From the IMG/VR virus record IMGVR_UViG_2547132270_000002: DNA of 6,341 bases. One strand, 5' to 3'. This DNA is from a virus. Taxonomy: Duplodnaviria; Heunggongvirae; Uroviricota; Caudoviricetes. Each line of letters opens with the position of its first letter. Position 1 is the first letter of the stretch. Shown here piece after piece: positions 1-5,474 of this stretch. A program made the position numbers and the translations under genes. A model generated the notes under the pieces. It had not been told where the DNA came from. It did no database searches and was given only the letters and a program-made list of their open reading frames with translations.

Positions 1-106
1 TCCCCGCCGTTGTTCACAAGCCAGCAGAAAAGGCCGAATTTTCGATGACTGCCTGTACATTGCAAAACAGTGGGCAGGTAAACAGAAAGGGAAAAAATGA
101 CAGTCT

Positions 107-160
107 GAGAGCCACTTTCACAACGGCTCTCCATTACAAAGCCCATCTACTGGTGGGCTT
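107..160. other. Two adjacent perfect stem-loops of unknown function
   Basis: Seen in sequence: gagagcc (107-113) pairs with ggctctc (125-131) around an 11-nt loop; aagcccatc (139-147) pairs with g-tgggctt (152-160), 9 bp including one G-U, around a 4-nt loop. No U-tract follows on either strand. Confidence 0.45.
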
Positions 161-274
161 GATAATGGCTTATACCCTACACGGGATAACTTAACTGATA
201 TCCCTTTTAACGGATAAAGGTGTTCAAGCCTGACACATCATGCGCTGTATCGTCGCTGTATTCCCGCATTAACC

Positions 275-475
275 ATGACCGTAGCCCGATGGGGAACTCC
301 TCTGCGCGAGTGTGCGGAAATAATCAAAAACGATGCACACCGGGTTTTTACCGCGCTAATGATTCGCGGGTTTGTCCCTCATGCTCGCCAGTCCTGTGCG
401 AGGGTGGAAGAAACAGGGCATGTATTCAGGAGCGTGCGACCACGGTCGCACGGTATATTTGTCAGGAGGTTGTGA
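275..475 (+). CDS. Hypothetical small basic protein (66 aa); weakly supported
   Basis: ATG at 275, TGA at 473-475 overlapping the next ATG in a TGATG arrangement. About 12 K/R against 5 D/E by my count. No recognisable SD upstream, and a second frame (220-585) is also open over the same DNA, so the frame call is uncertain. Confidence 0.25.
   Translation: MTVARWGTPLRECAEIIKNDAHRVFTALMIRGFVPHARQSCARVEETGHVFRSVRPRSHGIFVRRL
433..452. other. Perfect GC-rich palindrome cgtgcgacc-ac-ggtcgcacg (hairpin or operator-like dyad)
   Basis: Seen in sequence: 433-441 is the exact reverse complement of 444-452. It sits 11 nt upstream of the AGGAGG at 464-469 and is followed by the U-rich stretch gtatattt. 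Confidence 0.5.
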
Positions 476-585
476 TGAAAGAGTCGCAGAAATTTAATTC
501 AATAATGGAACGATTCTGTTCTCCTGAGCGAGAGGCTTACAATATGCATTCATTGAACGCCTGTTGTAATATCGCCAAACATTAA
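475..585 (+). CDS. Hypothetical small protein (36 aa) with a strong ribosome-binding site
   Basis: ATG at 475 preceded by AGGAGG (464-469) with a 5-nt spacer; TAA at 583-585. Product MKESQKFNSIMERFCSPEREAYNMHSLNACCNIAKH. I recognise no homologue. Confidence 0.3.
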   Translation: MKESQKFNSIMERFCSPEREAYNMHSLNACCNIAKH

Positions 586-717
586 TCAGGTGCACGAGAT
601 GTCGGCTAATACTGACCCTGACGAAATGTGGCGCTGCTTTAATCTGAAAGATGGTGCAGACGACCTGTAGTTCGCATCCATTCCTGATTACCCTATTCAA
701 GTTGATGAGACAGAAAC

Positions 718-963
718 ATGACAGCTGCTAAAGAGCAGATTGAATATGAGCTAAATGTATTCTTCGCGTCCGCCCTTGGTGATGTGTTTAAAAGTTGCCG
801 ACTGGCTGAAAGCGTATTGGATTACCAGATCTCTACTGTTAGTTTTCCAACGGAAAAAAACGCCTGGCTGGAGCTAGGTGAATTACCCGTGATTATCGAG
901 TTGTCTAACGGACGTCGCTTTGAGATTAGTGCGTCTGAATGGTTGCAAATCACACCGCTTTAA
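718..963 (+). CDS. Hypothetical acidic protein (81 aa) immediately upstream of cos; accessory (moron) position
   Basis: ATG at 718 with a weak SD-like GAGA 7 nt upstream; TAA at 961-963. Protein-like composition with 12 D/E against 6 K/R, no transmembrane-like segment. Same orientation as the late and head genes. Not recognised from memory. Confidence 0.55.
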   Translation: MTAAKEQIEYELNVFFASALGDVFKSCRLAESVLDYQISTVSFPTEKNAWLELGELPVIIELSNGRRFEISASEWLQITPL

Positions 964-1038
964 ATTAAGCCCGCAGCCCACCTTGGCTACTGGCATTCGC
1001 TAGTAGCTGGGTCCTTTCCAGCGATCCGGCAGGCTACG

Positions 1039-1050
1039 GGGCGGCGACCT
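1039..1050 (+). other. cosN: cosN 12-nt cohesive-end sequence GGGCGGCGACCT
   Basis: Exact match to the lambda 5' cohesive end as I recall it, preceded by ...TACG as at the lambda right end. Nicks are expected at 1038/1039 on the top strand and 1050/1051 on the bottom strand. Confidence 0.9.
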
Positions 1051-1090
1051 CGCGGGTTTTCGCTATTTATGAAAATTTTCCGGTTTAAGG

Positions 1091-1106
1091 CGTTTCCGTT
1101 CTTCTT
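1091..1106 (+). promoter_or_regulatory. cosB R3 element (gpNu1 binding site)
   Basis: cgtttccgttcttctt resembles the R1 core cgtttcctttct and lies about 50 bp from cosN, as lambda R3 does. An A/T-rich spacer (1110-1140) follows, where the lambda IHF site I1 lies. Confidence 0.65.
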
Positions 1107-1146
1107 CGTCGTAACTTAATGTTTTTATTTAAAATACCCCCTGAAA

Positions 1147-1162
1147 AGAAAGGAAACGACAG
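1147..1162 (-). promoter_or_regulatory. cosB R2 element (gpNu1 binding site)
   Basis: agaaaggaaacgacag is the perfect reverse complement of the R1 16-mer at 1188-1203. Confidence 0.8.
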
Positions 1163-1187
1163 GTGCTGAAAGCGAGCTTTTTGGCCT

Positions 1188-1203
1188 CTGTCGTTTCCTT
1201 TCT
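1188..1203 (+). promoter_or_regulatory. cosB R1 element (gpNu1 binding site)
   Basis: ctgtcgtttcctttct forms a perfect 16-bp inverted pair with R2, 25 bp apart, ending 24 bp before the nu1 ATG. Confidence 0.8.
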
Positions 1204-1227
1204 CTGTTTTTGTCCGTGGAATGAACA

Positions 1228-1747
1228 ATGGAAGTCAACAAAAAGCAGCTGGCTGACATTTTCGGTGCGAGTATCCGTACCATTCAGAACTGGCAGGAAC
1301 AGGGAATGCCCGTTCTGCGAGGCGGTGGCAAGGGTAATGAGGTGCTTTATGACTCTGCCGCCGTTATAAAATGGTATGCCGAAAGGGATGCTGAAATTGA
1401 GAACGAAAAGCTGCGCCGGGAAGTTGAAGAACTGCGGCAGGCCAGTGAGGCAGATCTCCAGCCAGGGACTATTGAGTACGAACGCCATCGACTTACGCGT
1501 GCGCAGGCCGACGCACAGGAGCTGAAAAATGCCAGAGACTCCGCAGAAGTGGTGGAAACCGCATTCTGTACTTTCGTGCTGTCGCGGATCGCAGGTGAAA
1601 TTGCCAGTATTCTCGACGGGATCCCCCTGTCGGTGCAGCGGCGTTTTCCGGAACTGGAAAACCGACATGTTGATTTCCTGAAACGGGATATCATCAAAGC
1701 CATGAACAAAGCAGCCGCGCTGGATGAACTGATACCGGGGTTGCTGA

Positions 1748-1773
<26 letters not shown>
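1228..1773 (+). CDS. nu1: Terminase small subunit gpNu1 (181 aa)
   Basis: ATG at 1228, TAA at 1771-1773. The protein MEVNKKQLADIFGASIRTIQNWQEQGMPVLRGGGKGNEV... matches lambda gpNu1 as I recall it, including the N-terminal winged-HTH region and K35 (AAG at 1330-1332). Sits directly downstream of cosB. Confidence 0.97.

Positions 1774-5454
<3,681 letters not shown>

Positions 5455-5474
<20 letters not shown>

Follow-up and report, generated by a model that had tools for sequence, protein, structure and literature searches.

Positions 220-585 of the analysed DNA, a 6,341-nt stretch referred to here as the window, form a mosaic junction close to the right-hand end of the genome of a lambdoid phage. 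In all likelihood, this junction brings together three unrelated things, none of which is a coupled gene pair: an RNA-like element, a SopB-type binding site and the stump of a gene. The first-pass annotation of the same DNA had described a pair of translationally coupled small genes preceded by a perfect palindrome, and had named as alternatives a single longer protein, a coincidence of open frames and, for the palindrome, either an mRNA hairpin or a protein-binding dyad.

The window comprises the right and left ends of a lambda-like genome, joined at cos. Region 220-585 lies between the lysis/accessory genes and cos, on the sense (+) strand of the late transcription unit, an orientation that was read from gene order. 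The sequence relatives of the window are many 46-48-kb non-mobilizable Escherichia/Shigella "plasmids" and the Ravinvirus YDC107_1, with ~96% identity over ~90% of its length. Its left flank (1-245) finds matches on chromosomes only, in Stx-like prophage contexts, and its 6.3 kb are devoid of sopAB. The phage behind the window would seem to be a lambdoid mosaic of the integrating kind. The features discussed below are as follows:

242-417, + strand: conserved structured-RNA-like element, based on covariation and a covariance-model score of 211 bits
246-252/329-335, + strand: helix P1 of the 5' domain
258-267/312-321, + strand: helix P2 of the 5' domain, which also holds an inner helix, P3, and the tip
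351-369, + strand: middle hairpin
393-397/413-417, + strand: 3' hairpin with a conserved 15-nt loop, GCGAGGGTGGAAGAA
275-475, + strand: 66-aa ORF, apparently a chance open frame over the RNA-like element and not a gene
433-452, no strand: predicted N15-type SopB (ParB) centromere site, an "IR" palindrome, based on identity to N15 IR4
464-477, + strand: SD AGGAGG (464-469) and ATG (475-477), a genuine phrog_2571 gene start in relatives
475-585, + strand: 36-aa ORF, about 20 N-terminal codons (475 to about 534) followed by unrelated sequence
531-1008, + strand: rare replacement segment containing an 81-aa ORF at 718-963 (WP_000122986.1)
about 1010-1220: cos region
1228-1773: Nu1
1748-3673: A
3670-3876: W
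3873-5474: B

Other inverted sequences were noted in the window. A hairpin at 139-160 (within about 127-172), AAGCCCA-TCTACTGG-TGGGCTT, lies just 5' of the RNA-like element; it has no T tract and was not flagged by the terminator scan, and phage Ayreon has a terminator annotated over its homologous stretch. Just before Nu1, a 25-nt imperfect inverted repeat spans 1147-1203, which we take to resemble the terminase-binding repeats of lambda cosB.

The RNA-like element at 242-417

The core of the region (242-420, about 180 bp) is common to hundreds of phages and is found in 4,062 of 5,426 E. coli genomes, with flanks that differ from copy to copy. Lambda carries it at 46869-47031, between bor and lambdap78, and K-12 carries it in DLP12 at 579010-579173, between borD and ybcV; further copies are present in Stx phages and in Salmonella phage S137. 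The phage-plasmid pEA26_5 has, in addition, a second and partial copy of the 5' part of the element (3169-3353/3285-3391 in the stretch examined).

A consensus fold, derived from an alignment of 38 distinct alleles, has an energy of -45 kcal/mol on the + strand against -29 on the - strand. Among close alleles, 99.4% of the cells are paired, compared with 28-62% when the partners are slid. A wider test used a covariance model to align 31 copies, divergent ones included. In this alignment, which was fitted to the model's own structure, 95.9% of the cells are paired and both partners vary in 15 of the 39 pairs. Shuffling yields 5.2±1.4 such pairs, with none of 500 shuffles attaining 15, and sliding the partners yields no more than 4; the covariation score of 0.185 compares with 0.075 or less in the controls.

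Individual changes agree with this picture. CG is exchanged for GC in P2 of the lambda and K-12 DLP12 copies. A MAFFT alignment made without regard to structure shows that P2 of the Salmonella phage S137 copy differs by three compensatory double changes (TATCATCGCA/TGCAATGATA against TATTCCCGCA/TGCGGGAATA), that its 3' stem is wholly different (TCTCGAT/ATCGAGA) around the conserved loop, and that its middle hairpin has been replaced and is still a hairpin. Because the G·U pairs fit the + strand only, and would be C·A on the - strand, the RNA would correspond to the sense strand of the late transcript. The fold is not strictly maintained, however: the window copy itself has a C263·A318 mismatch in P2, and both hybrid alleles (G·G at the same P2 pair, 263/318) and a truncated variant (the L268 type) occur. 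As a single sequence, 242-480 folds no more stably than its shuffles (z = -0.34).

These observations were weighed against a reading in which the core is a DNA "linker" for homologous recombination between lambdoid modules, its covariation being linkage among a few ancient alleles. Such a reading would suit the mosaic flanks with their several recurring breakpoints, the recombinant hybrid alleles with mismatches and the duplicated partial copy in pEA26_5. It is nevertheless unlikely given the many independent compensatory pairs across six helices and the G·U intermediates that work on one strand only, and the complete replacement of the S137 stems around a conserved loop is unpredicted by recombination alone.

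The structured-RNA reading is the one that we favor. With a confidence that stays a little short of even, 242-417 would further belong to a previously undescribed structured-RNA family of about 165-180 nt, situated in the lambdoid late transcript with the lysis cassette on one side and the packaging genes on the other. Its members would come from lambda, DLP12, Stx, HK97-like and Salmonella phages as well as N15-like phage-plasmids, and its purine-rich loop, GCGRGGGTRGAAGAA in most copies, would be a functional contact.

In the proposed mechanism, 242-417 would be non-coding, transcribed within the late (+ strand) transcript and folded into a multi-helix structure. No sequence is common to the three classes of upstream flank, and a sigma-70 promoter scan of 1-1250 found no site; from these two results we infer a cis-acting element of the late mRNA. 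It may act as a processing/stability element or as a protein-binding platform, with the conserved purine-rich loop as the putative recognition element or contact.

The element is unannotated in every record examined, and no description of an RNA in the bor-cos or borD-ybcV region was found in the searchable literature. With an E-value limit of 1, Rfam 15 had no relevant match to window 1-1300, the right end of lambda or the locus in pEA26_5; at a permissive threshold, only chance microRNA-like matches appeared, on the inverted repeat at 1147-1203. Known small RNAs were also considered as candidates. The Pas sRNAs occupy other positions (between Q, the esterase and the holin, or within structural genes) and AgvB/AsxR were rejected as well, Rfam giving no match to either group.

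A 16-nt degenerate pattern was also scanned against genome contigs and proved unspecific, nearly all of its 120 matches being due to chance and the three real ones being identical to lambda. Lambda-identical stretches (roughly 235 bp compared) occur in assemblies labelled Pseudomonas sp., Chromatiales MAG and Kitasatospora, and are most likely lambda DNA contamination.

The element is the real interest of the region and appears to be undescribed. If it is both real and undescribed, then a conserved and unannotated structured RNA is present even in the late operon of lambda, a proposition that is testable by lambda genetics.

The palindrome at 433-452 and the SopB sites of N15

The palindrome consists, as first described, of perfect 9-nt arms around a 2-nt centre (CGTGCGACC-AC-GGTCGCACG), and its core, GTGCGACCACGGTCGCAC, lies at 434-451. 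These 18 positions are an exact match to the perfect inverted repeat GTGCGACC-NN-GGTCGCAC, for whose 16 specified bases about 1.5e-6 exact matches are expected by chance in 6.3 kb. The SopB-binding inverted repeats of the linear phage-plasmid N15 were reportedly described by Ravin and Lane in 1999. The N15 centromere sites IR1-IR4 are bound by N15 SopB, and the core of IR1 and IR4 is GTGCGACCACGGTCGCAC (PMC7205306, Table 4). The 20-mer of the window is 100% identical to N15 45560-45579, which is IR4. Of the two alternatives that had been offered for the palindrome, the protein-binding dyad is the one borne out: on sequence identity, it is a known dyad, the N15-type SopB site.

The distribution of the dyad was examined in N15 and in relatives of the window. 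N15 has exactly four dispersed copies, at 33479, 35930, 41124 and 45561; the dyad recurs at several unrelated positions in related contigs, and the window has one copy. The phage-plasmid pEA26_5, which is one of the 46-48-kb plasmids and shares 96% identity with the window, has six IRs. Three cluster at its right end, and one of the six stands at the exact homologous position, before the same SD and ATG. This phage-plasmid encodes SopA, a SopB that is 73% identical to N15 SopB (SopB_HTH, PF18090) and an N15-type RepA. Two chromosomal relatives have the whole arrangement; the dyad of one is perfect, with GT at its centre, and that of the other, AVS0969, is altered by a substitution (T446C). N15-type centromere palindromes are unmarked in the RefSeq/GenBank records examined.

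Where N15-family SopA and SopB are supplied, by the replicon or by the cell, a SopB dimer would bind the dyad and nucleate a partition complex. Since the window holds no sopAB and its left flank matches chromosomes only, this copy may be without function. It is perhaps an orphan in the window's probably integrating phage, having arrived by recombination with N15-like phage-plasmids.

It is quite unlikely, in our assessment, that the palindrome serves mainly as an RNA hairpin or as an intrinsic terminator before the downstream gene, and not as a protein site. As RNA, it would form an 8-bp stem with a 4-nt loop, and the 61-nt stretch 425-485 folds at -19.1 kcal/mol (z = -2.5). The hairpin once proposed to control the downstream ORF is therefore a stable one, but the SD lies outside it. 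That stability suits a terminator, as do the terminator scan, which flags the window copy as terminator-like, and the N15 record, where IR4 carries the label of a putative rho-independent terminator. Chance alone would give about 1.4 such sites in the region, however, the tail of the window copy (GUAUAUUUGU) is weak, and late transcription is Q-antiterminated. The sequences after the other IR copies are mutually different and mostly not T-rich, whereas the 18-bp dyad shows no variation between unrelated positions, one of them within repA; what is conserved would thus be the protein site. The two roles are compatible and not mutually exclusive.

Several further observations concern the palindromes themselves. 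The centre of the window palindrome (442-443) is AC, and at the same locus it is GT in EC12, YDC107_1 and OZ043763. The 20-mer of these relatives is the exact reverse complement of that of the window, while both flanks keep their orientation, a pattern compatible with gene conversion among IR copies or with an inversion mediated by a hairpin. In pEA26_5, palindromes at 1473-1493, 1692-1711 and 3378-3396 of the stretch examined fall within 2 kb and exactly at homology breakpoints, which suggests that the palindromes or the element copies are recombination joints. In N15, IR3 (41124-41141) lies about 20 bp upstream of an annotated promoter (-35/-10, 41162-41190), which is then followed by a terminator. 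This position is in line with a role of Sop in late gene expression, which the title of Ravin et al. 2008 states to be facilitated by the Sop system (cited in PMC11652158).

The reading frames over 220-585

All of the sequence features on which the first-pass annotation built its gene pair are present: the ATG-initiated ORFs at 275-475 (66 aa) and 475-585 (36 aa), the 121-aa ORF from a GTG at 220-585, which shares its frame with the 36-aa ORF, the TGATG overlap (stop TGA at 473-475, ATG at 475-477) and the AGGAGG SD at 464-469, 5 nt before the ATG. The window contains 65 ORFs of at least 30 aa, so open frames as such are unremarkable. Pfam and PHROG scans of the 66-, 36-, 121- and 81-aa ORFs gave no significant match.

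The SD and ATG 475 are a genuine translation start, as had been supposed, but one that belongs to a gene of 286 aa that is truncated in the window. The annotated CDS starts in EC12, YDC107_1 and pEA26_5 align exactly with them, and the genes that follow are 198-286 aa long. The 286-aa product (WP_175120194.1, from pEA26_5) belongs to phrog_2571 and has neither a known function nor a Pfam domain. By BLASTP, the 36-aa ORF matches residues 1-20 only of this protein, at 65% identity and with non-conservative changes, and PHROG gave it no full-length match to the phrog_2571 profile. At the DNA level, homology is lost at about 530. Segment 531-1008, which follows, is dissimilar to pEA26_5, is present in only 2 of the 5,426 E. 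coli genomes and stands where the phage-plasmids have the 286-aa gene and a 149-aa gene. These alignments identify the 36-aa ORF as the stump of a gene, one that is perhaps still translated and probably without function.

The 81-aa ORF within the replacement segment (718-963) is annotated by PGAP and is a rare cargo gene beside cos.

We regard it as quite improbable that the 36-aa ORF is a functional small protein expressed from the strong ribosome-binding site that it inherited. Its SD and ATG are intact, and the ORF itself is intact in the three genomes that have this arrangement. Its homologues extend over residues 1-20 only, however, with the non-conservative changes just noted, the arrangement is very rare, and PGAP does not call the ORF. 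Its substitutions, 2 non-synonymous and 1 synonymous, give no sign of purifying selection, a comparison with no statistical power.

The upstream frame was compared across 116 homologous stretches drawn from IMG/VR contigs and annotated relatives, which represent 82 unique variants, the window included. An extra T follows window position 300 in 74 of the 82 variants, the T at 345 is absent from 43, and more indels of 1-2 nt occur at 373-374, 375 and 420. None of the six frames across the core is open in more than 25 of the 82 variants. Of the 116 stretches, 75 close the frame from ATG 275 after 11 codons, and the same DNA is read in another frame in other variants. PGAP leaves 220-585 without a gene in the two relatives that match the whole arrangement at 96-97% identity. 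A small conserved peptide starting at ATG 275 was also considered and rejected: MTVARRGIPSA is encoded in most copies, but lambda has a different frame and sequence.

As far as this comparison of homologues goes, the 66-aa ORF is a chance frame and not a gene. The checks suggested along with the gene pair point the same way. BLAST searches of phages and E. coli genomes find a mosaic region with frame-disrupting indels across 275-475, the very outcome that had been named as refuting the proposal, and the substitutions among homologues follow RNA pairing and not codon positions. The single long protein at 220-585 falls with the 66-aa frame, being broken by the same indels, and the alternative of a mere coincidence holds, with the TGATG overlap explained as a coincidence of the spacer of the ribosome-binding site.

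That the 66-aa and 36-aa ORFs are genes coupled through TGATG, with the hairpin modulating the second, is thus highly implausible: the overlap, the strong SD and the two open frames all exist, and a few close variants preserve the frame (one, L015, at 66 aa), but in most homologues it is closed by frameshifts and the early stop, the downstream member is the stump of a longer gene, neither ORF has a significant protein-family match, relatives at 97% identity carry no call, and substitutions track RNA pairing.

For annotation, the outcome is that two small genes drop out as spurious and that a so far unannotated protein-binding site receives a name. For phage evolution, the region would illustrate how partition sites and gene starts of N15-like phage-plasmids move into apparently integrating lambdoid prophages, with palindromes right at the mosaic joints.

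Comparison with known systems

Cis-acting structured RNAs are known from the polycistronic transcripts of phages, examples being the RNase III processing hairpins of T7 and lambda sib. The element at 242-417 resembles these in being a long, irregular and conserved stack of helices on the sense strand, between gene blocks of one transcript. Unlike them, it matches no Rfam 15 family, and processing is only putative here. It also differs by its conserved 15-nt purine-rich loop, which suggests a specific ligand or partner.

The gene start downstream of the palindrome compares directly with that of the phrog_2571 gene of pEA26_5. The two share the SD, the ATG, the match over the first 20 residues and the position immediately after an IR, whereas the window keeps only about 7% of the gene, the rest being replaced by unrelated rare DNA.

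The palindrome takes the same position as IR4 of N15, at the right end, after the lysis genes and just before the last gene(s) preceding cos, and its SopAB-encoding relatives have dispersed copies of the dyad, as N15 does. The differences lie in the surroundings. Only cos and the 20-mer are common to N15 and window 1-1250, and the flanks of the dyad are not those of N15. The relatives have three clustered copies at the right end, where N15 has one. The window's phage is, moreover, an apparent integrating lambdoid mosaic, so that a cognate SopB may be absent.

A more distant counterpart is found in the F plasmid, whose sopC repeat, bound by SopB, is TGGGACCACGGTCCCA (PMC3597684). Both sites have the same architecture with a central GACCACGGTC, and both belong with the ParB (SopB) family. 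They differ by one base per arm, GCGACC against GGGACC, and F SopB is non-functional with the N15 sites (PMC7205306). The sites of F are also clustered and not dispersed, forming 12 tandem repeats of 43 bp (PMC3597684).
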